Shown in pieces: positions 40,069-59,300 of a DNA stretch of 64,000 nucleotides. Positions within the stretch are counted from its first letter, which is position 1. Each line of letters starts with the position of its first letter. The stretch is from a virus. The stretch is from the IMG/VR virus record IMGVR_UViG_3300002835_000015, positions 94,799 through 158,798 of that record; one strand, written 5' to 3'. The notes under the pieces were generated by a model. The model was not told where the DNA came from, ran no database searches, and saw only the letters and a list, made by a program, of their open reading frames with translations. The translations under genes were made by a program, and so were the position numbers.

Positions 40069-40840
40069 AACCTTGTGCCTCCGTAATTATACAGAAGAAA
40101 TCCAGAAGCTATAAAAGACACATAGAACAAAATCATTAGTATAGTAATCATTCTAACTCCGTAATACTCTCTATATTTTCTGGCCCAAAATCCCCAAAGA
40201 ACTCAGGATCAATATAAAGTTGATCACTTAAATATTTAGCAATCTTCTCTTTGTCATAAGATTTACTATCGGTGCTATGATCATATAAACAATATTCATC
40301 ATCAACACCCAGTTCAATCACAACCTTAATAAGCTTCATATAAGGACTCCCATAACAACCCAGACTACTCTTGACTACTCCATATAGCAAAATATTTTTA
40401 GGGAATAAATAATCGTTATATAATATTCCACCAGTTTATTATCCTGCATCACACTACCATTGTACCATACGTTACTATTTGACGCAAGTTGTTGTGTTTC
40501 ATAGGGTTACGACAAGTCTACCATATTACTATTTCGGAATATTGGCTGACTATCAGCAACGACAGCAAATCTGGTGGATTACATAGGACAAAAGAATAGG
40601 AATAAGATATATTGTAATAAGACTCACACTAAAAATATCAAATATCATTCTTGTCCTAACTCCTTACAGGATCAGCACTTACATCCATTGTATCGTCATT
40701 CCATCCATTCGTCTATAGGGCCGGTTTGAGATACTTTCGCTAAGTCTAGTAGCCACAAGAGTTTACGACAAAGTTTCGCGGCCCCGTTTTTCGCAAAGTC
40801 TTGTCCCATAAGGGTTTACGTCGAGTGGTCTAAATATCAA

Positions 40841-40879
40841 AAGAAGAACCGCCGCAGGATTGCTCCCACGGCGGTTCCC
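40841..40879 (-). terminator. Terminator after DUF932 gene
   Basis: GAACCGCCG...CGGCGGTTC hairpin plus T-rich tail on minus. Confidence 0.7.
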
Positions 40880-40902
40880 CTCAGATCACCCTGCCACGAA
40901 GA

Positions 40903-41850
40903 TCAAACGGCGTTCGCAAACTCCATCGCCTTTTCCAAGGCCTTGATATTGTCGTTAGCATTAGCACCGAACCAGAGAGAGTCGAGGCGATTATCCTCAG
41001 TTCGACCCTTATTATAGTTCAGATATTCATTGTAACCATTATAAGCAGCCCACCAAGTACCACGCACATTCGTGGCCGATTGCTTCGGGCCTTCAACGAG
41101 GGCCAGAATCTCGTCCATGATATTACGGGTACGAGTCTTAATATCATCATCAACAGTACCTTCGATACCAAGCATCGTCTTTACATAGCGACGAATATCG
41201 CCCTGATTAAAGTTCTTCGACGCAAGAAATCGGAACTGCTCCGCAGTAGCCTCAAACTGTGAGTTGATATTATCCATGATATCACGAACCTGTTCCAGAT
41301 TATTCTTGCTGGAACGAGTATGGCGAATCCTAATAAGTTGGCTACTCTTATTATTATGGGCCATAGCCAGAGTATTCACGCATACGACACGAATAGGCGT
41401 ATAGCCAACACGAATCGCGGTCGTACCATCGTGCGAGTTACTAAGTAGAATAAACTTACTAACATCATCACCCGGAACAATCTCGCTGCTATCACGGTTG
41501 AGTTGTGCGAGAACCCAAACCTTTTGACCACTGTGAAGCGAACCAGCGGTATGGATGCCACACTCGCCAGCATCAATAAATGGCTGGAACCAATCAAAAG
41601 AATCCTTATTCTGGAGCGGCGTATAACGCGGCCCCACAACACCAAGGATACTACCGTCAGTCTTACGGTATGTAGCACGATGCGAAACCGGAACACCGTC
41701 AACGGTTTGCAGATCCTTAAGTCCAACTTCCCAATCCAGACCAGCAGCGACAATAGCATCTTCGACGCCAATATCAGCATCGACCTTATTGCCAAGACCG
41801 TGCCAAGGGGTAGCACCAACAAACATCATCTGTTCAACAGCAGCAGGCAT
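40903..41850 (-). CDS. DUF932-family phage/plasmid protein
   Basis: TPWHGLG, LLSNSHDG, TPIRVVCVNT, GTWWAAYN. Confidence 0.88.
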   Translation of the reverse strand: MPAAVEQMMFVGATPWHGLGNKVDADIGVEDAIVAAGLDWEVGLKDLQTVDGVPVSHRATYRKTDGSILGVVGPRYTPLQNKDSFDWFQPFIDAGECGIHTAGSLHSGQKVWVLAQLNRDSSEIVPGDDVSKFILLSNSHDGTTAIRVGYTPIRVVCVNTLAMAHNNKSSQLIRIRHTRSSKNNLEQVRDIMDNINSQFEATAEQFRFLASKNFNQGDIRRYVKTMLGIEGTVDDDIKTRTRNIMDEILALVEGPKQSATNVRGTWWAAYNGYNEYLNYNKGRTEDNRLDSLWFGANANDNIKALEKAMEFANAV

Positions 41851-41892
41851 ATCTAACTCCTTCGTGTAGGTTTCTCGTTCTCTGATGCACTG

Positions 41893-41920
41893 ATTATACA
41901 GTATGTTATCGGCGTGTCAA
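41893..41920 (-). promoter_or_regulatory. Consensus sigma70 promoter with GCCGATAA in the spacer
   Basis: Minus strand TTGACACGCCGATAACATACTGTATAAT. Confidence 0.8.
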
Positions 41921-42018
41921 GGGCCAAACTTGCGAAAAAATCTATTCGTCGTAAGTCGTTTTGCAGCAAGAGTTTACGTCGCGGCCGGGCCAGCAGGCTC
42001 ATCGTAAAGTCTTATGGG

Positions 42019-42513
42019 CTATAGATTTAGGAGAGGCAGTCCCAAGTCACGCTCACAAAGTTTAGAACCTTCATGGTCATCAGGATATCCACACTCTTCG
42101 GGCAGATAGCAATATACACCCAATGCTCTCGCTCTTGGATATTCTTCTTTAATAGTATCCGTAATATGCTTTATCGTTTTTCCAGAGCAAATAAGATCAT
42201 CAATAACCACATACCTAAAAGGAGCAACCCCCTCAGTTGTAAAATCGCTATATCTTCTTTCATCTTTTCTTACCACCAAAATGTTTTTGTTAAGAATCTC
42301 AGCAATCTGTGGAACAACCATCAGACCACTTACTCCGCAACAAGCGATACTGTCAAAGTCTTTACTAATCTTTCGCAGATCACAAACAGCCTTAATAATA
42401 ATCTTATTTCTAATCTTATGATTCAATACATGGCAAGTGTGGCTAGCACCTTGAATGATTCCGCCATCGGTATTACGAACTTCTTCGATTTGCATTTCGT
42501 TTAACGATTTCAT
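42019..42513 (-). CDS. Type I phosphoribosyltransferase
   Basis: VVIDDLICSGKTI PRPP-binding motif. Confidence 0.82.
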   Translation of the reverse strand: MKSLNEMQIEEVRNTDGGIIQGASHTCHVLNHKIRNKIIIKAVCDLRKISKDFDSIACCGVSGLMVVPQIAEILNKNILVVRKDERRYSDFTTEGVAPFRYVVIDDLICSGKTIKHITDTIKEEYPRARALGVYCYLPEECGYPDDHEGSKLCERDLGLPLLNL

Positions 42514-42516
42514 AAA

Positions 42517-42600
42517 TACGGACGGTACGATTCGAACGTACTAGAAGAGAGAAAGGATAATCCTTATAATAGATACTTGTCCCACCAAGTCGCATCCGTA
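42517..42600 (-). ncRNA. Non-canonical tRNA-like element
   Basis: 8-bp acceptor TACGGATG/CGTCCGTA, T arm GTACG-TTCGAAT-CGTAC, D-like ACTTG/CAAGT; atypical middle region. Confidence 0.55.
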
Positions 42601-42610
42601 ACGAGAGAGT

Positions 42611-42769
42611 TTATTCATCATCCAGTTCGTTAGCGATAGAGTGATAATCAAACTCCCAAGAGTTTTTCATATCTTCAATATCGTTATCATCCTCAAAAAC
42701 GAGATCGTCATCGTACAACTCGTCGATGTTGCTAGAATCATAATAATCACGATCATCATAATAAAGCAT
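42611..42769 (-). CDS. 52-aa highly acidic peptide
   Basis: GGAGAGG RBS; own TTGACA/TAGAAT promoter; 21 of 52 residues are D/E. Confidence 0.65.
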   Translation of the reverse strand: MLYYDDRDYYDSSNIDELYDDDLVFEDDNDIEDMKNSWEFDYHSIANELDDE

Positions 42770-42820
42770 AATACCTCTCCTTCAACCACTATTCTACACC
42801 AACGATCAACGATTGTCAAG

Positions 42821-42893
42821 TGGGGCCTGTGGGACTCGAACCCACGACCAAAGGTTTAAAAGACCCTTGCTCTACCAACTGAGCTAAAGCCCC
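42821..42893 (-). tRNA. tRNA-Lys(TTT)
   Basis: Cloverleaf; AGGGT-CT-TTT-AA-ACCTT. Confidence 0.92.
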
Positions 42894-43414
42894 AACTTAG
42901 CCGTATTATAACGGCATTTTTTCAGTTGTCAACCCCTACATTTTCGTAAGAGAAGGACTCTATTGGATACCCAGTTTTTTGAGATAGCACATCGAACATA
43001 TCATTCAAATCAATATCTTCTGGTACACTCAACCGGCACTCTGTCATAATCTTTTCAGAACCAATAGCAGTTTCACTAAACATATTATAGAAACGAATGG
43101 TTTTCATACTCTCTCCTTTGGTGGGATTCTACTCTAGAGCTATCGACTTGTCAAGAGGTCAAACTATAGTTTTTCTCGCTGACTATCTTCCACAATCGCA
43201 AATCCGTAGGATTAGGTAATCCAGTGGGTGTTTTTGTTTGGGCAGAACACCAAAAACTGCTCAGAACGCCAGCCTCCGTTTTGGTATTGTACTCTAGTTA
43301 TCGGCACTTGTCAATAGGATTCTTTAACTTGGTCTAAGTGCTTATACATAAAGAGTTTATAACAAAACCGGCCGCCAGCGTTTGACGTAAAGTCTTATGT
43401 CTCAATACTTTAAG

Positions 43415-43485
43415 CAAAGGCGGGTGGAATTGCACCACCATCTACGGTTTTGGAGACCGTCGTTCTACTATTGAACTACGCCAAT
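43415..43485 (-). tRNA. tRNA-Trp(CCA), acceptor stem with two T-T mismatches
   Basis: ACGGT-CT-CCA-AA-ACCGT; T loop TGCAATT. Confidence 0.75.
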
Positions 43486-43488
43486 GTA

Positions 43489-43573
43489 CGGCTGGAACAA
43501 GATTCGAACTTGTGGAGGATTTCTCCTCGTCGGTTTAGTAAACCGGTGCATTAGACCGCTCTGCCATCCAGCC
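43489..43573 (-). tRNA. tRNA-Ser(ACT), second copy
   Basis: Long variable arm GAGGAGAAATCCTC, CGGT-TT-ACT-AA-ACCG, G73. Confidence 0.85.
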
Positions 43574-43576
43574 AAA

Positions 43577-43648
43577 CTGGCAAGACAAGATTCGAACTTG
43601 TAACCTAGCGGTTAACAGCCGCTTGCACTACCGTTGTGCTACTTGCCA
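43577..43648 (-). tRNA. tRNA-Asn(GTT)
   Basis: AGCGG-CT-GTT-AA-CCGCT. Confidence 0.9.
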
Positions 43649-43653
43649 ATCAA

Positions 43654-43726
43654 ATGCCCGAAGAGGAATCGAACCTCTAACCAGCTGATCCAAAGTCAGC
43701 CGCTCTACCAGTTAAGCTATCGGGCA
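43654..43726 (-). tRNA. tRNA-Gln(TTG)
   Basis: GCTGA-CT-TTG-GA-TCAGC. Confidence 0.9.
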
Positions 43727-43730
43727 ATAA

Positions 43731-43802
43731 AGCCGACAGAGGGAATCGAACCCCCGACAGGTTGTTTACAAAACAACTACTCTACCACTGAGTTACGTCG
43801 GC
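43731..43802 (-). tRNA. tRNA-Thr(TGT)
   Basis: GTTGT-TT-TGT-AA-ACAAC. Confidence 0.9.
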
Positions 43803-44009
43803 AATCATCCTATTATACTCAATAATCATGATCCTCGCAAGCCCTACGCTTTTGGGCCGAACGAGTACGCTGACGCTTGGGACGATTATCGAACACGGTA
43901 AACTTGTGTTCCTGATGTCCCTGACGCATCTCCCAAGGCATAACTTTCTTGATTTTGATTACGTTGTGGTTGCGTCGAGGACGCATATCGTCGTTGTTGT
44001 GGAGGGTAA

Positions 44010-44633
44010 TCATGTTTGTATTCTATCGGACTTGTTGTTGTTTGTCAAGCCGTACTCACTAGCCCATTTAAAAATCGTAGTACGAGATACTTTAAGTTTT
44101 TTTGTCAGTTCTATATAAGTATAATCTTTTAATAGATTTTGTAAATATACTTTAGTTGGTTTGTTTAGTATTTTACTTTTTGCAAAACATTTGGGTGAAC
44201 AATATAGTTTGTTCTTCGTCTTATTTTCGCACACTGCACATTTTATAGTCTTGCGATATTTTTTTGGCTCATATTTAAACTCATTTTTGGATTCCACATG
44301 AGTTTCTCTATGACAGTTAGCACACAGAAGATCGCATTTATCTACTTCTTTTTTTAAGATATCTTTAGAATATTTTGTCATATTCATGCCACATATATCA
44401 AACAGTTTTTGAGATGGATCTTTATGATGAAACTCTAAAACTTCTGAATATTTAGCATACCCACATTTACAACATTTTCCTCCAGCATAGTCTATAAGTT
44501 CTTTTCTTATTCTAATACGACGATATTTAGTGGCCTCGCCAGAACATTTTAAACAACGATAGTATTTTCTATCATTAATAAGACTATGTTTTACAAAACC
44601 ATGTTTTTTACATTCTTTTATTTGATGTTTCAT
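44010..44633 (-). CDS. HNH endonuclease with C-terminal HTH
   Basis: CCKCGY...LEFHH...KCDLLCANCH; AAGGAG RBS before MKHQ. Confidence 0.85.
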   Translation of the reverse strand: MKHQIKECKKHGFVKHSLINDRKYYRCLKCSGEATKYRRIRIRKELIDYAGGKCCKCGYAKYSEVLEFHHKDPSQKLFDICGMNMTKYSKDILKKEVDKCDLLCANCHRETHVESKNEFKYEPKKYRKTIKCAVCENKTKNKLYCSPKCFAKSKILNKPTKVYLQNLLKDYTYIELTKKLKVSRTTIFKWASEYGLTNNNKSDRIQT

Positions 44634-45577
44634 GCTGTATCTCCTTCGGATACATAGATATACACCAAATGTCATCTTTTTGATGATACTGTACTATATT
44701 TTCTTTGTTCTGGCGGAAAATCGTACCATTGACCATTTTCATGTTGATAAAAAACTTTGTTTACGTTAGGATCATACGCCATTAAACAGTATTGTACCGG
44801 ATAAACTACCTTTGTCAACTCTTTTTGTTGAGTCAACTCTGGGATTTTTATATTCCCACTTTGATAATCTTTTACACCATTATAGGCCAACCCTAACAGG
44901 GCAATAAGCACACCAACCCATTGTAGCATTGTTCCGTTCCTTGTCAAGACCCGCTTCTCATCCATAGAGTATTTATCGGTCAAAAGGCCCGACCAACTTT
45001 AGAAAATCCTAAACCCTTACTCTGCAACACTTTACGACAAATCGCCGCGGCCCGCCTTGATGCAAAGTCTTATGCACCAAGGACTTATGGCTATTCAATC
45101 ATCATCCCGTGAAAGTTCCCACCCTGCGGCCCTAACTATACTTTTTGTAGCGATTACATTAGTTTTAGGAGTAGCACTAATATAATCTCTATATCCCTGT
45201 TCATCCACATAAAAGTGCTCGTCGATAGTATCGAACTTATTTGTTAGCAACAAACCACAAATAGCCGCTTCTAGAGCATTAGGTTGAGACAGAATAACTT
45301 CTAGTGTGCCGCTCTTTACATAGTATTTAGCCATGATCAACTCCCTAAAGAAATAACTACGGTATTATCATACTCACCAAAGTCTAAATCAACGATGAAG
45401 TCATTATCATCCAGAATAGACTCTAGTGTTTCTTGGCTAATCAAAGTGTCAGTATTAGTACCAAAACTAACGTCACTATTACAAATAGCATCCATTACAT
45501 CGCTATAGTTCAACTTATTATGTTCGCAGACTTCTCGTAGGTCGAGATATGTCCAAGCATAACTTTTCATATTATCC

Positions 45578-46285
45578 TCAGTGTGATGGAAACAACACGT
45601 TAGCCAAACCCTTGACGCACAAGTTACAGTCTACACTACCCTCGGTCGGTGTGCAAGTCACAACGCCACGACCACGACGGATTTCGGGGCAAGTGATAAA
45701 CTTTGTATCATTCAGCACAACCAGTTTAGGTAGACTCTTACGCCACACTTCCGCCGCTGCTTTACGCTTAGGACGTTTCTTGGCAATCTTTTCGTCGCTA
45801 TCGCACCACGCGAACAGTTTGAAACCTTGAGCCTTTGCCTCATTCATATCATTATCATTATGAACACTGGCATATACATTCATATACTTTTCCATAGCCA
45901 CAAGCCGACTATCATAGATATGAGTATAAAACCACATATCGGGCAGACTAGTACCATCGGCAAGAATACTCTCACAAGCCCACGTTACATTAGCAACATA
46001 GTCAAGGTCGAGTTGACCATCCTTGAACCAATCACCACGCTCATGCCAACGAATAGACTTCTCTTTACGAATCGCTTCCAGAATCATCGCTCTAATACGA
46101 TTCTTCTCGGTGATAAGATTTTGCATACCGGCAGGACGAACATTAGGATACATCTTCTCGGTTTGCTCAGCATAGCAACCGTCGCCCAAATAAACACAAG
46201 TAGGGGGACAAGTATCGCCAACGGGCCGACTCACGACCAAACAACCCTTGCCCAACTTATCGTTACCGTTTGCAACTTTCATCAT
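45578..46285 (-). CDS. Phage gp88-like Cys-containing protein
   Basis: GNDKLG, TCPPTC...CYA, IRWHERGD, WFYTH, TCPE. Confidence 0.6.
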   Translation of the reverse strand: MMKVANGNDKLGKGCLVVSRPVGDTCPPTCVYLGDGCYAEQTEKMYPNVRPAGMQNLITEKNRIRAMILEAIRKEKSIRWHERGDWFKDGQLDLDYVANVTWACESILADGTSLPDMWFYTHIYDSRLVAMEKYMNVYASVHNDNDMNEAKAQGFKLFAWCDSDEKIAKKRPKRKAAAEVWRKSLPKLVVLNDTKFITCPEIRRGRGVVTCTPTEGSVDCNLCVKGLANVLFPSH

Positions 46286-46452
46286 GTTTCTCCTATGCTA
46301 ACGATTCTATACTACAGTATCGTCATTGTCAAGAGAAAACTTTATAGGTTGTTGCAGAAAACGAAACAACTTGTAAGTGCTTGTGCTACAAGAGTTTACG
46401 TCGATCCCTGCGGCCCCGATTTGACGCAAAGTCTTATGATACAAGGATTTAG

Positions 46453-46526
46453 CGAGAATGACGGGACTCGAACCCGCAACCTCTAGCGTGACAGGCTAGC
46501 GATCTAACCGATTGATCTACATTCCC
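46453..46526 (-). tRNA. tRNA-Asp(GTC)
   Basis: CTAGC-CT-GTC-AC-GCTAG. Confidence 0.92.
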
Positions 46527-46529
46527 AAA

Positions 46530-46601
46530 TAGCCCCAAGAGGAATCGAACCTCTAACTAGACTTTAGAAGAGTCCTGTTATCTCCATTTAACTATGGGGC
46601 C
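46530..46601 (-). tRNA. tRNA-Arg(TCT)
   Basis: GGACT-CT-TCT-AA-AGTCT. Confidence 0.9.
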
Positions 46602-47223
46602 GTGTATCTATTATATCGTACTCATTCAATGCCGCAAGCCCCCACGGTTTCCCGTGGAGGCTGAAGCGGTTTGATGATAGAATCAGTCGATCAAGCCTCG
46701 ACCGTTTCCTTTTCGGTCTTAGACTTCTTAGGATTCGCAGAGTCGCCCGCAGCCTCGGCAGTCACACCAGTAACACGGGCACGCCACACCTTATAACCCT
46801 GCTCAGAAAAACTCTTGACCTCGCCAGCCTTGACATTCGCATGAACATCACCGGGCAGGGCATCATTCAGGGCAGCGGTCAGACTCTCCACAACCGAATC
46901 ACGATCCAGTTCGCTGGCAACAATATCAACATTGAAAGTAAACTTTTGCATAGTAATCTTCTCCAAAAAGTGTAATCGAACCAAGTAAAGTAATCATACC
47001 CAAACCATCATCACTTGTCAAGGTCTGATCCGAACTTTTCTTGTTTCGTGATCGGTCAGAGTCTTGTCGTGTGATGCTATCAGTATACCTTAGTTATCGG
47101 CACTGTCAACCCCTTTCCATTAGTATTTTTCACGATTGTTCCTAAGTCGTTATACGATAAGAGTTTACGTTGAACCGCCGCGGCCGTCCTCGCCGCAAAG
47201 TCTTATGCGGCAAGGCTTTAGGC

Positions 47224-48053: not shown

Positions 48054-50110
48054 TCGTTTGTCAAGAACCTAAAACTTTTCTGTGAAATCCGAAGAAATAC
48101 CCATTTGTTCTTGAACATCTCCGTCTGTCAGAGTATCACTATCCATCATAAAATCCAGATCATCAAAAAATATCTCAATATCCGGATTGTCGCACATTAA
48201 ACTAGCAAAGTTAAAAATCATAAAATAGGCTGTTGCCTGAACCCAAGAAGCACACAAACCAGAATGAAGTTCAATAGTATCCCTATTGTTATAAACGTAC
48301 TCAATACAAGACTGTTTTGTATTATCACTCATGTTATTCCATACAGGAATATCAAACTTATTAAGTTCATAAGATAACTCACCCTTAGATTGTGTCATCC
48401 AATCATTACGATAAGCATCATACGTTTCCTCAATCATGCCAATAGCAATCTTTCGACTTTGCATAAAATCTCCTTTTCGGGCATTGTACCTTATCGACCA
48501 AACCTTGTCAATACCTTAAAAAATGTACCTATACTGGTCTAACGTCCAGTGGTGTTTTAGACTTCCACCGCTTATAAAGTACACATATTCTCGCTGACTA
48601 CAGCCACCCCAGCCAAATCCGTAGGATTAGGAAAAACAATGTCGGCTTCCGCCATACTCGACCAACATTTCAGATAGCCTCTTTTGATATCATTGTGGCT
48701 ATCCCCGTCCATTGTTTCCCTAAGTATATCTCTATTATCGGGCGTTGTCAAGAGTTTTCTTTAAAAAATCCTAAATGGTTGAACCATAAGACTTTACGTC
48801 AAGTCTCTGTCGCCCCCCTTATCCTAAACTCTTGCGAGTAAAGGACTTAGGAGTTCTTATAAACTAGATCAACATACTTATCGACCAGTTCACTTACCGA
48901 TATCTCATGTAATCCAATCAACTCTTTAGCCTTGTCTACATTATGCTTATTTACAGCGGCCATTCTATTCTTGAAAAAACTAAGAATATAAATCATAGCC
49001 TTTGTACGATCTTCATTCATGATGGATAATCCTTTGGGTAATCGTTTTCTGGTCGTTTTGGTTTTGGCTGTCCCTCATATGGCATCCACCACGGAGCATC
49101 CATACGATCTACTATACCGGGACTTTCTTCACAAATCAAGATATGTTCACTTACCGGATCATCCTTATGAATCTCATACCTTCCCTGCCACACCCCAATA
49201 TACTCGCCAAAGTAATAAACCTTTTGGCCGTTGATGGGGCGACGAGGACCAAAAAAACTAATCCATTCCATTACTCACCCCCATAACTACGATATATCTC
49301 GTAGCATTTTTCGATAGTCTCATCAGACTCATCATCATTTTTTACAGAGATACCATTCTCATACTTATGAAACAGTTCGCTAAAAAGTCCGTAAAGTTTT
49401 CTTTCCTGTTGTCTACACTTTTCAATATTCATTATTTTCCCCTCGTAATAATCAAACACATTGTACCAGTATCACTATCGGTATATCTCACAGTCTCATG
49501 AGGCCCGTAATACCAAGCATCATTCTTGGAGAAGTTGAATACAACCTCATCGGTCTTGAGTTGAGTATCATTATACCCACCCTCATACCCAAGAGTCAAT
49601 ACCCTCATATCACCGGGATAACCCTTCAACTGCTCAATCAGTTCATTAACGGTCATTCTTCATTCTCCGGAGGAAACATATTGTTCCAAGATTCATCATC
49701 GTTACCGCTCAACAGAATCTCACGCTGTTCAGCATTAAGATGAGGAAAGCACTGTTGAAGATAACCACCATTAAGCCACTCGTTAGCAGCACTCAGTTTA
49801 ACAGTGATACTAAACGGCTTAGCACTCATGGTGTAACCTGAAAAAGTAAGATTCTCACCATCAACCGTTCGGGTCACCTTATCACTCAGACAATACCGCT
49901 CAAAGCCAATCATAGTTTTTCTCCTTGTGCTACCATTCTACACTAGTATTATCGGCTTGTCAATAGGCTTTTCTTTAGCAATCCTAAGTTGTTGGTGGGT
50001 AAGACTTTACGACGAATGTGGCCGCGTCAGTTTGTCCTAAACTCTTAGAGGATAAGCATTTAGAGCGAACCCCTTTTGAATATGGTATACCGGCTGTTAA
50101 TGGATCGACT

Positions 50111-50188
50111 TAGTGGATAGATGGATTCGAACCATCAACTCCTCTTGTATTTAAACAAGTGGAACTCTACCTTTGAGTTATACCCACC
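50111..50188 (-). tRNA. tRNA-like RNA with extended (22-nt) anticodon arm
   Basis: Canonical acceptor, D (ACTC-AAAGGTA-GAGT) and T (GATGG-TTCGAAT-CCATC) arms; anticodon arm CCACTTGT-TTAAAT-ACAAGAGG. Confidence 0.65.
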
Positions 50189-50199
50189 GATAGTTTTAC

Positions 50200-50445: not shown

Positions 50446-50935
50446 TATCACTATACAGTATATAACCCTACTGTCAACCCCGGCGATGATTACGTCTTCG
50501 CTGAACGGGAGGTTTATCGTGATAGGTTATCCAATCTAGTCCCGTCGCATGGACCCACGGATGTTTGTTAGATTTTTTGCCTTCGTCGTATTTCGTCAGA
50601 GCAATAGCAGATTTCATCAGCATAGTAGCCATAGTTCGGCTGGTCAGGCCATGCTTTCAAAACTTCCCTACAATCTTTAATCGTAAAAAGAAGTTCAGAA
50701 TAAGTCATCTTCTTAACCTTTTTAGCGTAAGCCGCATGATCCATAAACTTAGTGGCAAACATCTTTGTCTCCTGTGTCATGATTATACACTCCTATTATC
50801 GGTCTGTCAAGAGCATATTCTGTAGAAAAAACTTTTTGATGCAAGTCTATAGGAGATAAGAGTTTACGTCGAATCCGGCCGCGGCGGTTTGCCCTAAACT
50901 CTTGGTAGTCAAGAACTTAGAGCGAACCAGCCTTT

Positions 50936-51439: not shown

Positions 51440-51553
51440 AACTGTCTCCTTTAGTGCGATTCTACTCTTATCTTATCGGTTGTCAAGAGTCTAAACTTTT
51501 GGCTGACTATACCCACTCAGCCCAAATCCGTAGGATTACCTGATACAAGCCAA

Positions 51554-51625
51554 TGACCCCACGGAGAATCGAACTCCGATCTCCACCGTGAAAGGGTGGC
51601 GTACTAGCCGTTATACAATGGGGCC
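51554..51625 (-). tRNA. tRNA-Glu(TTC)
   Basis: CCACC-CT-TTC-AC-GGTGG. Confidence 0.92.
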
Positions 51626-52085
51626 AATATATTCACCAGACTACCTTCTCAATCCTGAGATCACTACCATACTTATCTTTAGCCTTTCTCCAAGCGTCAT
51701 ACTGGCTAAACGATACCACATAGCCCACAAATCGGCCATGTTGGAACACTCTCCACGACATTCCTGCGAGACATTGGGTTGTAGTCATAAACTTTCTCCT
51801 TAGTCGCATTATACACATTATCGACCAGTTGTCAATACCATCTTTAGTTTTTCTCTAAATCCTTATCCCATAAGACTTTATATCAAATCGGGCCGCCCAT
51901 CATTGTCCTAAACTCTTATTCACAAACACTTTAGGTCAACACAATATCATCCCCCGATACATAATACTGATCGTCAGCATGATTCAATACAAGATACATA
52001 GGAGGATTAGTTTTATCCGATACGTCAATAATAACAACATCCTCATCCTGCATAATATCATGAACAATATTGCCAATCTTATACA

Positions 52086-52553
52086 TCATACCCTCTTATA
52101 AACTGTAGTGATAATATCTTGATTATTCTTATAGAACGTCCGCACCTTCACAGACGATTTAATCTGATCTTTCGGATACTTCTGAATATATTCCCAAGCA
52201 TCCTTAATATGTTCGCTTGTCCAAATCCGGTCAACAAACTCACCAACCCGTACAGTAAACGCAATATCAACAGTTCCGTTCTTGCTAATCACCAGAAACA
52301 AGAACACAATATGCTTCTGTTCATCAGTTATATCATGATACTTACTAGGGTCAATCCATTGCAAGTCCTGTTGCTTTTTACATTCGACCAAACATCCCAA
52401 CAAATCATTGGAATAATCATACAGAATATGGCTATCTCTTTTCCAGCCACTATGCCGTGTGAGAATATCATGAAGCATCTGCTCTTTTCCTCCCCTACCT
52501 TTTAGGTTAATGGAAGAAATAGCCTCTACGTTGATACTGCTAATAGGACACAT
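52086..52553 (-). CDS. Possible PD-(D/E)xK nuclease-fold protein
   Basis: LYDY...LVECKKQ motif. Confidence 0.35.
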   Translation of the reverse strand: MCPISSINVEAISSINLKGRGGKEQMLHDILTRHSGWKRDSHILYDYSNDLLGCLVECKKQQDLQWIDPSKYHDITDEQKHIVFLFLVISKNGTVDIAFTVRVGEFVDRIWTSEHIKDAWEYIQKYPKDQIKSSVKVRTFYKNNQDIITTVYKRV

Positions 52554-52744
52554 GATTTCACCAAGTGTGATTGGTTAGCAGTCGCCAATATACTGTCAGT
52601 ATCGGGTTTTGTCAATAGAATGCTTGAGATTTTTCTAAGTCTATGGCAGATAAGACTTTACGTCAATCCCATGCGGAGTGCCTCGCCCTAAACTCTTGGC
52701 TTGCAAGAACTTAGAGCGAGGTCACTTCACCACCACGAGAAATA

Positions 52745-53152
52745 TCAGAAGAGAAGGTTTGCCAAACCCGTCTTGAATGCTGCACCAGCCAACAGCGGCC
52801 TACGGCAGTTCACGGTACGTTCAGCGTAGAAGTTGCGAATCTTACCGTCCGCAGTCTGGCACGTTACCAGATGATTGCTACGCTGAAAGTTGCTATCGTT
52901 GCGACGATATGCACTACGAGCATTCAGCCTGCGAATAGCATTATCGTCCAGCACATGAACACTCAGCACCTTTGCCAGATAACGCTCAGGGTCACCAGCA
53001 TTAGGCTGGAGATATTCAAAGTTATAGAACTCTCCGGCCTTTGCCGTTGACAGCGACCCATGAGCACCACCATAGATGCCATAAGCAGCAAACATAGCAA
53101 GGCAGCAAACAACAACCGTAGCAATCGAACCAAAAAGAAGAACATCGTTCAT
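52745..53152 (-). CDS. Membrane-anchored hypothetical protein
   Basis: Start at MNDVLL downstream of promoter 53199-53226; N-terminal TM. Confidence 0.6.
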   Translation of the reverse strand: MNDVLLFGSIATVVVCCLAMFAAYGIYGGAHGSLSTAKAGEFYNFEYLQPNAGDPERYLAKVLSVHVLDDNAIRRLNARSAYRRNDSNFQRSNHLVTCQTADGKIRNFYAERTVNCRRPLLAGAAFKTGLANLLF

Positions 53153-54850
53153 AAAAATCCCTTTCGTGTAGTGAAGACCAACCAAACCAGATAGCCCCAG
53201 TATACATCTATTATCGGCATTGTCAAGCCCTATCCTTGAAGAAATCTTTTTGCCACAAGTCCTTATGCCACAACAGTTTGTGAAAAACGCCTGCGGCCAC
53301 CCATGCTGCAAAGTCTTATGCAGCAAGGGTTTATGGCTCATTCAAAATCCACGAAGATAATCTGATTGTATCCTCGCGGCTTCACGGTATAACCATCACC
53401 ATAGTCGTAGGTATCGGCCTTTACCGCAGTCATATTCGCCAGAGACTTAGCCTGTCGAATAACGCTACGCTGAGACTCAGCATTACGAGGCTGAAACTCA
53501 TACCGCTTCACCCAACCATAGTTAGCCTCACCGCCAAACGTATCAGTAACCGTCACAACACACTTCGTCATTTTCACTGTCTCCTTTGGTTTTATCTTAT
53601 CACACAATCAAACGTTGTCAAGCATACGGATTCAAGATATCAGCAGCCCAATCCTCAATACGGTTACCAGCAGCACCACGGCTACTGTCTTTCCTGATAG
53701 ATATCTTGCGAACATCATCCGCAAAAAACGTACCACATTCTCCCATGCTACAGTTGTCGAGGGTAACAATAAGAAACTCGTTACCATTGTCGATAACAGC
53801 ATGAGACATGGTGCCAAGAGCATCAGCAGCAGCGAGTCTCATTTCCTGAAGGGTAATCATGTTATTTCCAGTTGTTACGGCGACATTCTTCAGCCCATTC
53901 AGCATCTTCACGACGAGTACGATCATTGTACCCATAACCACCATTAGTCAGGTAGTTATCTTTCACAGCATCATAGCCATCATCACTATCCACAAACGGC
54001 TCGCAATGTTCCTTGCAACGCGAGCAAATATCACCACGATAGATCGTCACACCACAGCAGTCACTCAACATTTTTCACTCTCTTTCTTACTCTTTATATC
54101 GGTATTCTACCAGCCTAAACTTTAGAAGTCAAGCATATTTTTTTGAAAATCGTAAGTTGTTGTGTCTCAATAGTTTGCGTCAAATGCGGCCGCTGGGCCT
54201 TGGCGTAAACTCTTACGCATCAAGGCTTTAGATCACTTGGTCTTAGAGTCGTTCATTTTCTTTAAGGCTTCCACAATCATAGGGATTCCAGAAAACATTT
54301 TTTACCCCATAAGAAAAGTTGCGATACAACCACAAACAAACGCCACAGACAGGACAATCTTATCCTTAATGGTCATTTTATTTCCTTAATGGAAAAACAA
54401 GATCACAAACAAACCAAGCACAACCAAGGCCAACAACAAATCCCACACTGAAACTATTCCAGTCTAGATATATATCGGCCATCCGTAGCCCTTTCCTTTA
54501 GTTATACTTCATCCGAATCATCATCTGAACAATCTCAGGACGAGTCATGATACACTCCCACATATACCAATCACAGAAGTTGAGCCAACCCTGCTCAGTA
54601 ATCTGCCCACGCTGAAACATAGTCCACATGGTTTGATACATTTTACCACCGTTTTCCTTATTAGCATTCTACACTACTATTATCGACTTGTCAAGCCCCA
54701 GTCTTCAATATTTCTAAGTCCTTACTGCACAACAGTTTGCGTCAAACGCTGGCGGCGGGCCTTGGCGTAAAGTGTTACGCTTCAAGGCTTTAGGTCACCA
54801 CCGGCCAGTACCATACCATTTCAATAGTTCATAGACATTTATTGCATACA

Positions 54851-55156
54851 TCACACCACCATGCCTTCCATAAAAGGATATTCCTTACCATTTACAGTCA
54901 CGAACCACTCATACTTGTGCTGATGCACACGAACGGGGCTATACTGGTTGATTCTATCTTTGGTAGTGCTGGTTTGCCATCCCCCCGTTTGCAGGGTATA
55001 GGTATTGTCAGCATGAATCTTTACCACATAGGTACTGTGGAGCAAAATACCAACCGATCCACATGGTAGGATTTCAGCGTAGGTGTTGTTTCCTACCTTG
55101 CGGCTATCCTTATTCCGCTTGCCACGAACCATAGAAACTGCTTCGGCGTGAGTCAT
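54851..55156 (-). CDS. Hypothetical phage early protein
   Basis: GGWQTSTTKDRIN motif; RBS. Confidence 0.6.
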   Translation of the reverse strand: MTHAEAVSMVRGKRNKDSRKVGNNTYAEILPCGSVGILLHSTYVVKIHADNTYTLQTGGWQTSTTKDRINQYSPVRVHQHKYEWFVTVNGKEYPFMEGMVV

Positions 55157-55625
55157 ATTCTTTCCTTTGGTGGTGATGATGTTAGGATTCTACGCTATAA
55201 AACTTATTCTGTCAAGTCTCAACAAAATCAGTAAGTTCATTCTGATTGAAAAGCCCAAACTGGCCATTCTCATCCTTGACGAAAAACATGATCAGCGGCT
55301 TTCCGTTTTCGATGATAACGTCGAAACTGTTGACCACAACCTTAGTACCGGAAAGAGTCTTTGCGGTCATGGTTACTACGTTGGTGATATCATTGGTGAT
55401 CATGTTTTCTCCTTTGTTCTTATATCGACATTATACAGTCCGTTCTTTAGGCTGTCAACAAGAAAATAAAAGATTCTTGATTTGTTCTAAGGTCTTGAAT
55501 CTAAAGAGTTTACGTCAAGTCTGTGCGGCCCGATTCGTCGTAAAGTCTTATGCGACAAGTAGTTAGATTATTATGATATTGGTGTATAAACCATAGTCTA
55601 CATTTCCATACCGGAGACGAGTACT

Positions 55626-56024
55626 ATGGCAAAATATGATCCACAAGAATATCAGCGAAATAAAGAGTCTTACAAGATTAGAAACCAAAGATACAAGAGC
55701 AAACATAGGTCTATGGTGAACCAAAAACAATCGGAATATAGATCAAAAACAAAAGATAAAATCAATCAGTATTCTAAAAGTCGTAGAAATAAAATAAGGA
55801 TTCTATATGATGAATACATGAAAGATAAATCTTGCTTACATTGTGGATATGATGATTCTCGCTCTCTCGTATGGCATCATACCGACCCATCACAAAAGAA
55901 AAATGGAGTTGTTCAGTTGGTTGGTAAAAAACACGGGTGGGATACTATCATGACAGAAATAAACAAATGTATATGCTTATGCCATAATTGTCATAATATA
56001 TTACATAATCACCAGTCACCATAG
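55626..56024 (+). CDS. HNH endonuclease
   Basis: CLHCGY...LVWHH...KCICLCHNCH; opposite strand; GGTGTATAAA at 55581. Confidence 0.85.
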   Translation: MAKYDPQEYQRNKESYKIRNQRYKSKHRSMVNQKQSEYRSKTKDKINQYSKSRRNKIRILYDEYMKDKSCLHCGYDDSRSLVWHHTDPSQKKNGVVQLVGKKHGWDTIMTEINKCICLCHNCHNILHNHQSP

Positions 56025-56308
56025 TCATCCATTGAAGGATTATAGTATTCATCTTCGGCCCAGCCTACTGACCCCATAGCGCTGTCGTGATCTCCATCCA
56101 TGCTGTCATCATAGTGATCATCGTAATCATCATCGTGGTCATCATCCAACTGGCTCTCAATCTCATGATCGGCATCGGCATGATAGGCTGAACTATCCTC
56201 GCCATAGAAAGCGTCATGGTAATCGTAGTTATAATCGTCAAAGTGGCTGCTCATAGTATCTTCCTCATAAGAGTTTTCGGGATCGAACAAAGGATCAGGA
56301 TGACTCAT
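56009..56308 (-). CDS. Asp/His/Tyr-rich acidic protein
   Basis: Start at MSHPDP; DDDHDDDYDDHYDD tract. Confidence 0.65.
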   Translation of the reverse strand: MSHPDPLFDPENSYEEDTMSSHFDDYNYDYHDAFYGEDSSAYHADADHEIESQLDDDHDDDYDDHYDDSMDGDHDSAMGSVGWAEDEYYNPSMDDYGDW

Positions 56309-59300
56309 CTTTTTACTCTTTTGCAATGGTACAGAAACAAAGCCCAACATAGGCCACAACGAACAGCATAGCACTAAACATAGTTTTTGTCAAGCCTCCA
56401 CGATTTCGGGATAAATATCTTCGACCAGAATCTCAGCCAGACCCGTAACCTCTGCCCAATCCATCGGGTGGCAGTCGGGTTCGTCAATCGGCTCTACCAT
56501 AGGCTCGATGATACCCTGCTCTGCAAGGTAACTCAGTTGGCTGTTTGCTTCGTCTAAGTCGTGAAACATTTTCGAGCCCTCGTTGGTTGTGATCATCATG
56601 CCACGATTATACACATAATATCGGCCAATGCAAGTGGAGATATGAATCTTTTTCCTTACAATGCTGCAAGTTTCGCAACTCGTTGACGGATAAGAGTTTA
56701 CGTCAAACGCGGGCGGCGGGCCTCGTCTCAAAGTCTTATGCGGCAAGGCTTTAGGTCAACCCCTCCAACCGAAGGGTGAAACTTCCTCGCCCGATGCCAT
56801 AATGGCAGCATACTGGTCGGCCAACGCTGCCTTACGCTCAGCCGAACCGGGCTTGCCAACGGGTACAATCATGGTATCCTCTCCCCCATTGTAGCGAGAG
56901 TCAACCTTTTCCGCCTTAGCCTTACTACCCTTGCGGAGAGCCTTGCGATTGAACTTGTGAATCTTTTCACTGTGAATCGGGCCATACAATCCATCGGCAA
57001 GGGACGGCTGATGCCGAGTGGCCATACCAACAAAGCACATGCGAACCTGACGCTTGGCATCTTCGATAATCTTGAACTTGGTAGCCATTTTCTTTTTCCT
57101 CTTGGTGATGAACGTATTTTACAGAAACTTTTTTGTCTTGTCAACCCCTCTAGTGGGGGTCATGAGACGCCCATCCAAGAGGCTTTTTCCATACAGAAGT
57201 TATAGAACATATCGTTCAGCATTTCTTCGTAGTTGCTTTCCGTGAGTCTACGCCGATCATTCGTCGCCTCGCACTCAGCAAACAGTTTACCGTCTGCCGT
57301 ATACAGTAGCACCACATTGTACGTTTCGCTACCCCAAATCTGACGCAAAGCATTTTTGATTTCGTTGGATATCATTTTGTTTCCTCTTTCTCTTATATCG
57401 TCATTATACAGGGTATTTCTTAGAGATCAAGCAAAAAGTTTCCTTAAAAGATCGCAAGGTTCGTAAGTCGTTATGCGACAAGACTTTGCGAAAAACCGAG
57501 CCGCCACCGCTCGACGTAAAGTCTTGCGGCTATTGAGTTTACGTTGCGTGAATGAATACCTTTTCGCTCGTGGTCTTATTTGTGATCGTCACAATCCAGT
57601 TACGACCACTACCATCCTCACGCATGATGCCATTCACAAGGCCAGCATAAACCCTACCCTTCGGATCGATCACACTAGTATACTTACCAGCGATCATGGA
57701 CGAGAAGATAGTATTGAGGCTGTTCTGTCGATTGGCGTAGGCGGTTCCGAACATTTTCTTTTTCCTTGTGGTGATGATGAAGTTATTTTACAGAAACTTT
57801 TTTGCTTGTCAATCCCCTCTATCGTAGGGTAATCAAGCCATTGAAGTGCGAGAAGGTAAGAGTAAGAGTCTTGCCAGGATACTTCTGGTCGATATACGCT
57901 TGAGCGGTACTCTTGCGATTATCGGTAGCGGCAACGTGTTGCACTACCATACCATTCTCATCCGTAACCTTCCAAACTTTCTTTTCCACAATCCTAGGAA
58001 GGGTGCCGATGAAGTCGTTGATATGAGTTGCTTGTTCCATCTTCTTTCTCTCTTTCTTGTGATTCTATTCTATCAAAACTTTTTCGTATCGTCAACCCCC
58101 TCAAATGGCGAAGGTGTTCATAAACCTTTCGGCCTCATATGAACTCTTGAACGTAGCAAGCAGTTGACGGTGATATCCATTCGGATACTTCTTTTCCCGA
58201 TAAACCTTATACTTACCCTTCACAACGATCAGAACCAGATTTTCCATTTCTTTCTCTCTTTCCTTTTCTCTTATATCGACATTATACCATCCATACTTTA
58301 GAAGTCAACAAAAATCTTTCCTTACAATATCGTAAGATTTCTTACAGCAAATATCATGCCAAAACTCTGCTTATCTTAAGTTGTTATGCTGTAAGAGTTT
58401 GCGTCAAGCCCCTGCGCCCCGCCTCGCCGTAAAGTGTTATGTAGCAAGGATTTACGTCGAGTGCATACCTCTAGTGGGGGGTTAGCCCACCTTGAACATG
58501 AAAACCCTAGAAATCCCACATGACGATACCCCCCAACTGGGGCAATCATACAGCCAATCGGGCAACCCCTTACAATGGGGAGGATGATAGCCGTCAACGT
58601 GTAGCGTATTATTATCATCCGGCAACCGCTGTACGATCAGGCCATGAGATTCTAGTTTGCAAATCATTTCAGAAACAGACATTATTTTTTCCTTGGGTTG
58701 CATATCATATCCAAGATTATACTTTTTTCGCAAGTATCTTACCTTATCCTTAGTAGCATTTGCGTCCATTCCAATCCGATTCAATCTTGCAAAACTATTC
58801 ATTTTCTTTCCTTGTGAGAGTATTCTATATAATCTCCTTACTGGGGAGATTAGATTCCCTCTCCATCGTCAAGACCGGGAATGTAATCGATATCAGCATG
58901 AGAAACATAGTCGGCGTTGAGCCGACCAACGTTGCCTTCCTCGTCGCGTACAGTAAGGGTATTATCGTCGTTCACCGACTCGACTCGATAAACCGGATAG
59001 TTCTCACAATCAAGCCCATATTCTTCATCACTCTCAACCCAATCGCCAACTGAAAAACTGCCGATCATTTTCTTTTCCTTTTCTCTTCTGTCTTACTTCT
59101 TATATCGACATTATACAGACATATCTTTAGGTTGCAAGCGAAATCTTTTATTTTTTTTATTTTTTTTAGAGAATATATTATTCTTTATTCTTTGGCATAG
59201 CATTTGCTAGGGTCATTTAACGTAAGTCCTTATCCCATAAGAGTTTAGGGCAACTTTTGCGGCCATAACTCGTCGTAAAGTCTTACGCCACAACACTTTA

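Follow-up and report, generated by a model that had tools for sequence, protein, structure and literature searches.

A 78-bp Twin-Palindrome Element Punctuates the Early Region

The window, the whole 64,000-nucleotide stretch analyzed here (positions 94,799 to 158,798 of IMG/VR record IMGVR_UViG_3300002835_000015), belongs to the genome of an uncultured ~159-kb phage (158,798 bp), in which 19 copies of a 78-bp twin-palindrome element (E1 to E19) separate early gene cassettes. The copies, their weight-matrix scores and their neighbors are as follows.

40741..40818, plus: E1, last of the array, 76.5 bits; only a weak promoter (9/12) after it
40882-40841: strong intrinsic terminator, before E1 on the coding strand
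41952..42029, plus: E2, 77.0 bits; contains the stop of ORF 42019-42513; promoter TTGACA-16-TATAAT at 41920-41893 (minus)
43335..43412, plus: E3, 75.4 bits; 2 nt from the 3' end of tRNA-Trp; promoter 43314-43286 (minus)
45010..45087, plus: E4, 85.5 bits; promoter 44947-44920 (minus), gap 62 bp
46374..46451, plus: E5, 92.3 bits; 1 nt from the 3' end of tRNA-Asp; promoter 46332-46304 (minus), gap 41 bp
47143..47220, plus: E6, 100.2 bits; hairpin variant GCCGC/GCGGC; promoter 47109-47082 (minus)
48772..48849, plus: E7, 77.3 bits; ORF 48847-49020 ends on its terminal TAA; promoter 48751-48723 (minus), gap 20 bp
49985..50062, plus: E8, 73.0 bits; promoter 49963-49935 (minus), gap 21 bp
50842..50919, plus: E9, 84.0 bits; promoter 50810-50782 (minus), 12/12
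51856..51933, plus: E10, 74.9 bits; ORF 51931-52089 ends on its terminal TAA; promoter 51835-51808 (minus), 12/12
52636..52713, plus: E11, 75.8 bits; promoter 52615-52587 (minus), gap 20 bp
53256..53333, plus: E12, 86.4 bits; hairpin variant GCTGC/GCAGC; promoter 53226-53199 (minus)
54153..54230, plus: E13, 90.6 bits; promoter 54132-54104 (minus)
54715..54792, plus: E14, 95.8 bits; promoter 54694-54666 (minus), gap 20 bp
55488..55565, plus: E15, 83.3 bits; ORF 55563-55730 ends on its terminal TAA; promoter 55458-55430 (minus), 12/12
56676..56753, plus: E16, 98.9 bits; only a weaker promoter (9/12) after it, gap 41 bp
57464..57541, plus: E17, 83.8 bits; ORF 57539-57754 ends on its terminal TAA; promoter 57430-57403 (minus)
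58377..58454, plus: E18, 98.9 bits; promoter 58308-58281 (minus), gap 68 bp
59223..59300, plus: E19, first of the array in the direction of transcription, 77.9 bits; promoter 59137-59110 (minus)

All 19 starts claimed in an earlier note on this DNA were recovered. A repeat search grouped 17 of them into a single family and assigned those at 49985 and 50842 to a second family that overlaps it. A weight matrix derived from all 19 scored them at 73-100 bits and exceeded 20 bits at exactly those 19 places in the whole 158,798-bp genome, the full-genome scan that the note had called for thus yielding no further copy, and base shuffles of the genome never scored above -7 bits. The rigid, indel-free geometry also stood: the 9-7-9 / 28 / 9-7-9 layout was gapless in 19/19 copies and in 170 copies from 20 IMG/VR loci, and a MAFFT alignment of 91 copies gave 78 columns with zero gaps. 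When the inner gap was allowed to vary from 14 to 42 bp, 28 was the sole gap in every listed contig with several copies, and single hits were scattered across all gap lengths, as by chance. Two 25-bp palindromes, comprising four TAAnnnCTT half-sites whose ends, TAA and TT, are the invariant columns, lie on either side of a G+C-rich core, in which GCGGCC is usually present (GCGGCC/GGCCGC in 77/142 linkers versus about 10 expected). The palindrome centers lie 53 bp, or five helical turns, apart and hence on the same face of the helix. In agreement with its description as a loose inverted repeat, the whole unit scored 50-80 bits on the reverse strand. The N7 spacers, said to diverge freely, do differ between copies, but the right-hand one is constrained (consensus ATGCnnC) and covaries with the end of the linker.

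Elements Lie Between Gene Ends and Strong Promoters

As the earlier note had proposed, elements adjoin the end of the preceding gene, with an ORF stop or tRNA 3' end -10 to +8 bp away in 11/19 copies; in four, the stop codon is the element's last TAA. The element is followed by an A/T-rich stretch, which we take to resemble an UP element, and then by a near-consensus sigma70 promoter. Such promoters, matching at least 10/12 consensus positions in the gene direction, followed 116 of 141 unique copies, compared with 6 in the opposite direction. The distance from element to promoter was concentrated at 20-21, 29-33, 40-41, and 62 bp (resultant length 0.74 for a period of 10.5), although members of a gap class share sequence, so that descent and 10-bp A-tract modules, as opposed to selection on phase, may account for part of this helical phasing. 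Terminator-like sites were not enriched in the array (17 versus 13.7 +/- 4.2). Counting against a protein-binding site, the element's center lies at about -69 to -135 from already near-consensus promoters, which is unusual for a simple repressor, and only 19 of the about 38 strong promoters of the array have an element.

A Second Element Type Occupies an Orthologous Junction

The geometry is conserved in relatives, with more than 470 further gapless copies found in arrays on related contigs of uncultured phages. No copy was found in cultured phages, and no Rfam family matches the element. The double site was absent from the roughly 185,000 bacterial and archaeal genomes scanned, in which the single palindrome occurred at about chance level, plus at one conserved Pseudomonas locus.

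New to this analysis is a second rigid twin palindrome in related genomes, type B (CTGCCAWWWTGGCAG-14 nt-CTGCCAWWWTGGCAG), which replaces the 78-bp type at an orthologous gene-end/promoter junction; in G011 it stands in place of E6. Type B differs in palindrome sequence and size (15 bp, 6-3-6) and in unit length (44 bp), yet it resembles the 78-bp type in being rigid, in its position (stop codon, element, A/T-rich stretch, promoter), and in the GCGGCC/GGCCGC carried by most type B linkers. All five complete genomes (5/5) contained one element type each, and nearly identical modules bear different types. One type per genome, together with the swap at an orthologous junction, is what would be expected from a genome-specific trans-acting reader.

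The Palindromes Are Conserved as Sequence

Of the cells in the 9-7-9 palindromes, 79.1% were paired, against 79.9 +/- 0.4% after shuffling; covariation scored lower than in the shuffles, and column composition fully accounted for the pairing. Because base-pair covariation is absent, the palindromes are conserved as sequence, which fits a double-stranded site read by a protein, and not a hairpin or attC. An additional GC hairpin in the gene-proximal half (columns 46-54/65-73) covaried above every shuffle, with 65.7% of cells paired versus 60.9 +/- 0.8%, 47 double changes versus 28, and the compensated variants GCCGC/GCGGC, GCTGC/GCAGC, and GTCGC/GCGAC. This covariation, real though partial, weighs against a protein-site reading.

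The helix could belong to an element that is transcribed at the tail of each unit and acts in RNA to terminate or attenuate transcription, direct processing, or stabilize the 3' end, much as a REP element or the stem-loop of the promoter-early stem-loop (PeSL) units of T4-type phages would. Elements begin a few bases from stop codons and tRNA 3' ends, where a terminator would be expected; canonical terminators are almost lacking from an array with about 38 strong promoters; and PeSL stem-loops terminate transcription (PMC2839356). Nevertheless, we consider this unlikely. Only some 30% of copies have at least 4/5 pairs of the helix, the mirror-image position in the opposite half of the element gave no signal, and the best-conserved parts, the half-sites, do not covary. 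No U tract follows the helix, and wobble pairs favor neither strand. Predicted RNA folds are weak, differ between copies, and have energies barely below those of shuffles (mean z -1.3 and -1.4 for the two strands). A hairpin, moreover, needs neither the exact 78-bp length nor the 53-bp spacing.

Cassette Seams Are Enriched at Elements, and No Tyrosine or Serine Recombinase Is Found

The earlier note had suggested recombination sites that shuffle accessory genes. This was supported only as an evolutionary pattern. Related genomes differ by whole-cassette insertions and deletions, including an additional cassette at the E13 position in L001, and by one permutation (L016), with junctions inside elements. 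Ends of homology blocks fell in elements in 27/112 cases versus 10 expected (2.7-fold excess, p about 2e-6), and the whole array has been exchanged between phages with backbones only about 45% identical at the protein level. A dedicated recombination or mobility substrate (attC-, lox/dif- or MITE-like) that moves cassettes or elements would also accord with the 9-7-9 geometry, which is that of lambda-type core sites, and with one type per genome and a precise swap, as if elements were replaced in concert. We regard such a system as quite unlikely. The lack of an integrase reported for the window extends to the whole genome, rated 100% complete by CheckV, in which no tyrosine or serine recombinase domain was found. 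The 7-bp spacers differ between copies, and classical tyrosine recombinases do not tolerate spacer differences between partner sites. Block ends within elements were spread from -3 to +80 without a single crossover point, 73/112 (65%) lay outside elements, and gene order was largely syntenic. The element is also tied to promoters at set distances and is absent from the bacterial genomes scanned.

Genes at the Head of the Array and Candidate Readers

The array adjoins a control hub whose neighborhood is conserved in relatives:

59987..60030, minus: strong intrinsic terminator, 20-pair stem and T run, making the HTH gene its own unit
60055..60300, minus: gene at the array head, encoding an HTH protein of 81 aa with three helices and an AT-hook (RGRPRK) at its C terminus
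60532..61188, plus: gene for a 218-aa sigma-like protein, divergently transcribed

AlphaFold2 predicted three helices for the HTH/AT-hook protein (pLDDT about 90 over residues 11-50); its best fold matches, none significant, were HTH DNA-binding domains, and the helix TAM(V/I)RRQRRK is nearly invariant. Across 80 loci, 305 elements lay downstream of this gene and 0 upstream. As a reader of the palindromes it was rejected, the tree of this conserved gene not following element type; it is a candidate binder of the GC core shared by both types. The sigma-like protein (Sigma70_r2, E=1.8e-4, 21.6 bits, just under the cut-off) likewise did not covary with element type, and this lack of covariation in both array-adjoining genes counts against a protein site. 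The sole ORF exclusive to type A genomes encodes an acidic protein of too rare a family. HU, ParB, and HTH_3 domains were not found in the genome.

No phage protein that tracks element type was found, as might be expected if the elements were bound by a global regulator, nucleoid protein, or gyrase that the phage borrows from its host, the two types then reflecting different hosts. The promoters are of the host sigma70 type with A/T-rich upstream stretches, and the GC core, set in an AT-rich phage genome, is reminiscent of BIME elements, which gyrase binds. We judge this quite unlikely, given the results of the bacterial and archaeal scans for both the double site and the single palindrome, and since nearly identical modules with different types would require frequent host switches.

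A Putative Docking Site and Seam for Cassette Swaps

On balance, we lean toward the 78-bp unit being a composite protein-binding site on double-stranded DNA at the boundaries of early transcription units. The tandem-operator alternative of the earlier note accords with conservation of sequence rather than pairing, with the rigid geometry, and with the few discrete distances to the A/T-rich stretch and sigma70 promoter. The element is most likely a docking site for a putative protein as well as a seam for cassette swaps between related phages. A multimeric factor, for example a dimer per palindrome, may occupy all 19 sites; once bound, it could insulate each strong promoter from upstream read-through or coordinately control, and most likely shut down, early transcription by the host polymerase. 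Because it is repeated about 19 times, the unit with its promoter would also serve as a homology patch through which ordinary homologous recombination could add, remove, reorder, and exchange cassettes between phages.

Comparison with Known Systems

The system had been called undescribed, and within the literature searched its only close published parallel is the PeSL cassettes of T4-type phages (Arbiol et al. 2010, PMC2839356; Comeau et al. 2014, PMC4122927). The upstream part of a PeSL is a G/C-rich stem-loop for which transcription termination was shown (PMC2839356), and cassette exchange via PeSLs has been proposed (PMC2839356, PMC4122927). Like the unit described here, a PeSL is small and composite and recurs many times among small early genes, most of them uncharacterized, with the same succession of end-of-gene element, A/T-rich stretch, and strong promoter of the sigma70 type. 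In either system, the insertions, deletions, and replacements that distinguish related phages have seams at the units, and no dedicated recombinase is encoded. Unlike the PeSL stem-loop, the element here has a rigid 78 bp and four conserved half-sites without covariation, with a hairpin in about a third of copies; the phage is not recognizably T4-like, and its lineage has two interchangeable element types.

Many copies in short intergenic gaps, in one direction of transcription, are also typical of the stoperators of cluster A mycobacteriophages, which number in the dozens and are bound by one protein (L5 gp71); in L5 they reportedly halt elongating polymerase and thereby silence many units together. 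Stoperators are single asymmetric 13-bp sites with a known repressor in a temperate phage, whereas here a 78-bp twin palindrome with a putative reader lies at fixed distances from promoters, and no sign of lysogeny genes was seen in the phage. Stanley and colleagues are said to have described, in 2019, a very strong early anti-CRISPR promoter with nearby inverted repeats and a small HTH protein, Aca, encoded beside it; Aca reportedly shuts the promoter down after a burst, from sites that overlap or abut that single promoter. Very strong early promoters near inverted repeats, with a small HTH gene alongside, recur here, but the double site is distal and common to 19 promoters, and the adjoining HTH protein does not track palindrome type.

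The suggested likeness to integron attC sites failed, since conservation does not extend to structure, length does not vary, and every cassette is equipped with a promoter. In attC, structure and not sequence is conserved, length varies from 57 to 141 bp, an adjacent IntI is needed, and cassettes lack promoters; the 78-bp element departs from all four traits. What the two have in common are imperfect inverted repeats at cassette 3' ends, a one-directional array, and a similar cassette density.

A rigid 78-bp unit recurs throughout the array

The record is a single contig of 158,798 bp (35.8% G+C), the last 64 kb of which form the window. All 19 copies of the 78-bp twin palindrome reported in the earlier note (E1 to E19, window 40741-59300, numbered against transcription so that E19 is transcribed first) were recovered at the same starts; a repeat search placed 17 of them in one group and assigned those at 49985 and 50842 to a second group that overlaps it. 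The layout of 9-7-9, 28 bp, and 9-7-9 was in register in all 19. From outside inwards, the half-sites read TAAGTCsTT, TAAACTCTT, TAAAGTCTT, and TAAAgCCTT, in which TAA (positions 1-3) and TT (positions 8-9) were almost invariant. A weight matrix built from these copies found only the same 19 sites above 20 bits genome-wide, all in one orientation and scoring 73 to 100 bits, with genome base shuffles staying at or below -7 bits. The elements also scored 50 to 80 bits on the reverse strand, hence the 78-bp unit is a loose inverted repeat, as had been proposed. Elsewhere in the genome, the single 25-bp palindrome was limited to two weak sites just beyond E1 (39538-39562, 18.8 bits; 40657-40681, 13.9 bits), which scored inside the shuffle range and may be decayed elements.

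An exact-pattern scan of IMG/VR returned 20 loci with the element, and applying the matrix to these related contigs, a comparison suggested in the earlier note, revealed 170 further gapless copies, arranged in arrays at a spacing of 0.4 to 1.9 kb. When the inner gap was allowed to range from 14 to 42 bp, all listed multi-copy contigs had a gap of 28, and the lengths of single, chance-level matches scattered flat. MAFFT alignment of 91 copies, including a distant clade, gave 78 columns and zero gaps; the indel-free geometry first described for the 19 copies therefore holds well beyond them. The element was not found in cultured phages using megablast or blastn, matched no Rfam family, and the double-palindrome pattern had zero matches in about 185,000 bacterial and archaeal genomes. 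In bacterial genomes, the single palindrome was about as frequent as chance predicts, apart from one conserved Pseudomonas locus, which was uninformative. These results confirm the element far beyond chance; it is rigid, and what is conserved is its sequence.

Conservation of sequence rather than structure

Within the 9-7-9 palindromes, 79.1% of cells were standard-paired, compared to 79.9 +/- 0.4% when partners were shuffled among sequences, and both double changes and the covariation score were lower than in shuffles. Palindrome pairing thus follows from conservation of the sequence, and conservation of this type points to a protein reading double-stranded DNA. In the absence of covariation, a hairpin or attC-type structure for these palindromes was ruled out. 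Integron attC sites show the reverse, whereby the folded structure is kept while sequence and length vary; here sequence is kept without covariation and length is fixed at 78 bp. A long hairpin over the whole unit (column i with column 79-i) was also rejected, the observed pairing equaling the column-composition expectation. Fold energies were only 1.3 to 1.4 SD below shuffles on either strand, and predicted folds varied from copy to copy. The linker is non-random, given that GCGGCC or GGCCGC was present in 77 of 142 linkers against ~10 expected by composition. Restriction-site avoidance of GCGGCC outside the elements was not seen in the genome, and a flip of the central segment behind the 21/58 and 38/41 couplings was ruled out, as the couplings were unlinked to each other.

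A scan of all column pairs identified one segment, columns 46-54 with 65-73, that paired above composition expectation (65.7% versus 60.9 +/- 0.8%, a level reached by 0 of 500 shuffles; 47 double changes versus 28 expected) and displayed the compensated variants GCCGC/GCGGC, GCTGC/GCAGC, and GTCGC/GCGAC. This partial hairpin covariation keeps alive an alternative in which the element acts at the RNA level, as a 3' element, which we nevertheless consider unlikely. At least four of the five core pairs were present in ~30% of copies only, and no pairing signal was seen at the corresponding mirror position; the G/C hairpin in the gene-proximal half is therefore an optional extra, and no T run (U tract) follows it. 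PeSLs (promoter-early stem-loops), the repeated early units of T4-type phages, contain a stable G/C stem-loop as terminator or attenuator. In the element, the main palindromes lack covariation, a covarying GC helix is found in ~30% of copies, and there is no U tract. Intrinsic (Rho-independent) terminators consist of a G/C hairpin and then a U tract, whereas only three terminator-like patterns, all weak, were located within the elements, and terminator-like sites in the array were no commoner than in shuffles.

Elements lie between gene ends and early promoters

The array is a G+C island (37 to 46%, compared to 31 to 35% around it; window 40000-60000) at the start of a leftward transcription unit. 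On the genome, the plus strand from 0 to 64 kb encodes large genes without family matches, taken to be structural, and the minus strand from 65 to 154.5 kb encodes replication, nucleotide-metabolism, and early genes, including RNR, RIIA, a DnaB-like helicase, and DNA polymerase. Genes of the array region are on the minus strand, and most cassette ORFs are orphans without Pfam or PHROG matches, those with matches being:

47224-47607 (-), short L7/L12 C-terminal-like stretch
54851-55156 (-), Kyanoviridae Gp96
45578-46285 (-), GP88/DUF7227
40903-41850 (-), DUF932

Consistent with the initial description of elements abutting the previous stop codon or tRNA end and being followed by a promoter, 11 of 19 copies had an upstream ORF stop or tRNA 3' end between -10 and +8 bp of the element, and in 4 of 19 the terminal TAA of the element was itself the stop codon. 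A TTGACA/TATAAT promoter in gene direction, matching at least 10 of 12 positions, was found at 116 of 141 unique copies, compared to six in the opposite direction, and the 20-kb array contained ~38 minus-strand promoters at the same threshold. Gaps between element and promoter clustered at 20-21 bp (37 copies), 29-33 bp (53), 40-41 bp (5), and 62 bp (8), and were phased with a period of 10.5 bp (resultant length 0.74), part of which may be accounted for by descent because the gap classes share sequence. Gaps of the 30-bp class resemble those of the 20-bp class extended by CGACAAAAAA. The sequence between element and -35 is A/T-rich (e.g., GATTTTTTCAAGAAAA) and resembles an UP element. Both the strong sigma70-like early promoter in a repeated unit and the A/T-rich region ahead of the -35 are shared with PeSLs. 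Integron cassettes, in contrast, are promoterless, whereas nearly every cassette here has a near-consensus promoter.

On balance, we lean toward the element being a composite protein-binding boundary site (operator/insulator) that separates a gene end from the following promoter and the A/T-rich stretch ahead of it. Such a site would resemble a PeSL in role and, as a side effect, would guide homologous exchange of cassettes.

Cassette shuffling in related genomes

The earlier note had also raised the possibility that the elements are recombination sites, and comparison of related genomes for cassette gain, loss, or reordering, as it advised, supported this only as an evolutionary pattern. Cassettes were mostly syntenic, with a mosaic of identities whereby 100% occurred beside 50 to 60% against the same contig. 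Whole-cassette indels were found among relatives, for example an extra cassette at E13 in relative L001, together with one permutation, in locus L016, where cassette 5 precedes cassette 4 and every junction is inside E4, E5, and E6. Unique homology-block ends were enriched in elements (27/112 versus 10 expected, 2.7-fold, p about 2e-6). PeSL units likewise flank small orphan genes in a hyperplastic region and coincide with indel or replacement breakpoints, and recombination between them yields mini-circles. However, 73 of the 112 ends were elsewhere, and those inside elements were scattered from -3 to +80.

A dedicated recombination or mobility system is nonetheless quite unlikely. Tyrosine-recombinase core sites of the lox/FRT/dif/lambda core type have inverted arms and a 6-8 bp spacer, and every copy here has the 9-7-9 arrangement. 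However, partner sites of that type have the same spacer and a cognate recombinase is encoded, whereas the 7-bp spacers varied between copies (columns 10-16 and 63-69 were among the most variable) and the whole genome (CheckV 100% complete) had no match to the serine recombinase family PF00239 or, at E <= 1, to the tyrosine recombinase family PF00589, for which a full-genome search had been proposed. Integrons differ in the same way, having an adjacent IntI tyrosine recombinase. Given the differing spacers and the absence of a detectable recombinase domain, we read the shuffling as homologous exchange at repeated conserved units and not as site-specific recombination. Homologous exchange at repeated units has been argued for PeSLs (PMC2839356, PMC4122927).

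Two element types share one control hub

Two divergent genes are located at the head of the array:

60055-60300 (-), HTH/AT-hook gene, 81 aa
60532-61188 (+), sigma-like gene, 218 aa

The HTH/AT-hook gene is the first leftward gene and forms its own unit, closed by a 20-pair terminator (60030-59987). AlphaFold2 predicted three helices in its product (pLDDT about 90 at residues 11-50), whose nearest folds, none of them significant, were HTH DNA-binding domains, namely those of ArgR, GcrA, and Fur and the small-terminase N-terminal domain. The basic tail contains the AT-hook RGRPRK, and TAM(V/I)RRQRRK, the third helix, hardly varies. This unnamed, entirely metagenomic family comprises >380 clusters, and the gene is encoded on 224 viral contigs. 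In the 80 best HTH loci, 305 elements were downstream of the gene and none upstream; as for loci without an element within 10 kb, the array begins just past an inserted gene block in three related genomes (G006, G007, and G009). The sigma-like gene adjoins the HTH gene in all relatives, and its 218-aa product, in which a Cys-rich stretch comes after a near-threshold Sigma70_r2 match, may be a phage sigma factor.

Two of the complete relatives, G008 (224 kb) and G011 (150 kb), have kept the HTH gene and lack the 78-bp element (type A). Their arrays instead contain two copies of CTGCCAWWWTGGCAG separated by a 14-nt linker, forming a 44-bp twin palindrome (type B) that is followed by an A/T-rich stretch and a sigma70 promoter. 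Type B is also rigid, the linker being 14 nt in 16 of 17 copies; this linker looks like WWWWCGCGGCCC, is asymmetric, and occurs in either orientation. Spurious ORFs over the type B unit translate as LPKWQ. Type B arrays were located at:

L280:12000-20195, related locus
L317:11800-19600, related locus
G008, 21.9-41.9 kb
G011, 0.2-14 kb

Each of five complete genomes had one element type. At the E6 junction, the gene end (87% identical protein) and promoter of the genome studied here (G000) align with those of the orthologous junction in G011, the 78-bp unit being replaced by the 44-bp unit, with CGCGGCC in the middle of both.

The HTH recognition helix was identical in type A and type B genomes. 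In alignments of the HTH and sigma-like proteins, each of the three type B loci compared was nearest to type A loci (78 to 89% identity), with zero type-specific residues. Given that the trees ignore type and the helix is the same, neither protein can read the palindromes, ruling out the HTH/AT-hook protein as palindrome reader and its sigma-like neighbor as type-specific reader. Operator/stoperator arrays similarly comprise many sequence-conserved intergenic copies of one site; these have a cognate phage binder that matches the specificity of the site. Here an HTH/AT-hook gene heads the array, with the same recognition helix in genomes of the other type. The HTH/AT-hook protein is a reasonable candidate for binding the A/T tract and GCGGCC core that both types share. 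Presence and absence over the five complete genomes identified an acidic 86-aa ORF (49653-49913) as the sole type A-exclusive ORF; with just 25 clusters, its family is too rare to supply a general reader. Seemingly type B-exclusive ORFs were rejected as readers, since they were also present in type A loci. No HU/TF1, ParB, or HTH_3 domains were found in the genome. The reader may be host-encoded, although we regard its being a borrowed host factor as quite unlikely.

Apparent exchange of the early module between distant phages

Large backbone proteins of G000 were 27 to 67% identical to those of all four complete relatives (mean about 44-46%). Nucleotide similarity to relatives was almost limited to 136-158.8 kb of G000, where 24 to 100% of each 4-kb bin aligned with the related genome G001 at 78 to 92% identity, with more than half aligned from 140 kb on. 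The early array and hub form a compositionally distinct module, and given the disparity between backbone (~45%) and array (78 to 92%, against G001) identity, the whole early module appears to move between distantly related phages.

In large lytic phages, takeover and anti-defence genes, which evolve fast, are kept as small early cassettes arranged in arrays. Regulation and reshuffling of such arrays have, to our knowledge, been studied mainly in T4-type phages, in the form of PeSLs. The widespread uncultured group described here (at least 224 viral contigs; >380 HTH clusters) appears to use a rigid protein-type DNA site and not a stem-loop, with two site types that replace each other at the same junctions and an array module that is exchanged over very distant backbones. 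A more speculative and unlikely extension is that the twin palindromes are swappable "address labels" of a new protein-dependent boundary system, with a type-specific reader and a shared GCGGCC core. As part of the exchangeable early module itself, such a reader would sit at all cassette junctions, both insulating or terminating transcription with no RNA terminator and allowing the labels to be replaced in concert. The GCGGCC core would be a common chassis read by the conserved HTH/AT-hook protein, and the whole 20-kb early module could move across backbones ~45% identical. If found, the reader would open co-ordinate early-gene control and transcriptional insulation to experimental testing and would show how accessory cassettes travel between phages, and site and reader together could serve as an orthogonal insulator part.

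Other features of the window

A second repeat family of ~51 nt and several RNA and nuclease genes were also identified:

40540-40590, 43173-43223, 48588-48638, 51497-51547, the four copies of the ~51-nt repeat
28379-28465, tRNA-Ser (anticodon ACT)
43488-43574, tRNA-Ser (anticodon ACT)
50111-50188, tRNA-like, with an abnormal anticodon arm
28500-28848, phage tmRNA
61967-62962, GDP-mannose 4,6-dehydratase gene, adjoining the nuclease pair
62955-63708 (+), small HNH endonuclease gene, then ERCC4-type nuclease gene

The tag encoded by the phage tmRNA is GETRFALAA. On the minus strand, the ~51-nt repeat includes a short hairpin, TAATCC-TACG-GGATT, whose loop is of the UNCG type. It ends short units that have no 78-bp element, directly ahead of the next promoter, and may represent either an alternative 3' element or a small RNA.
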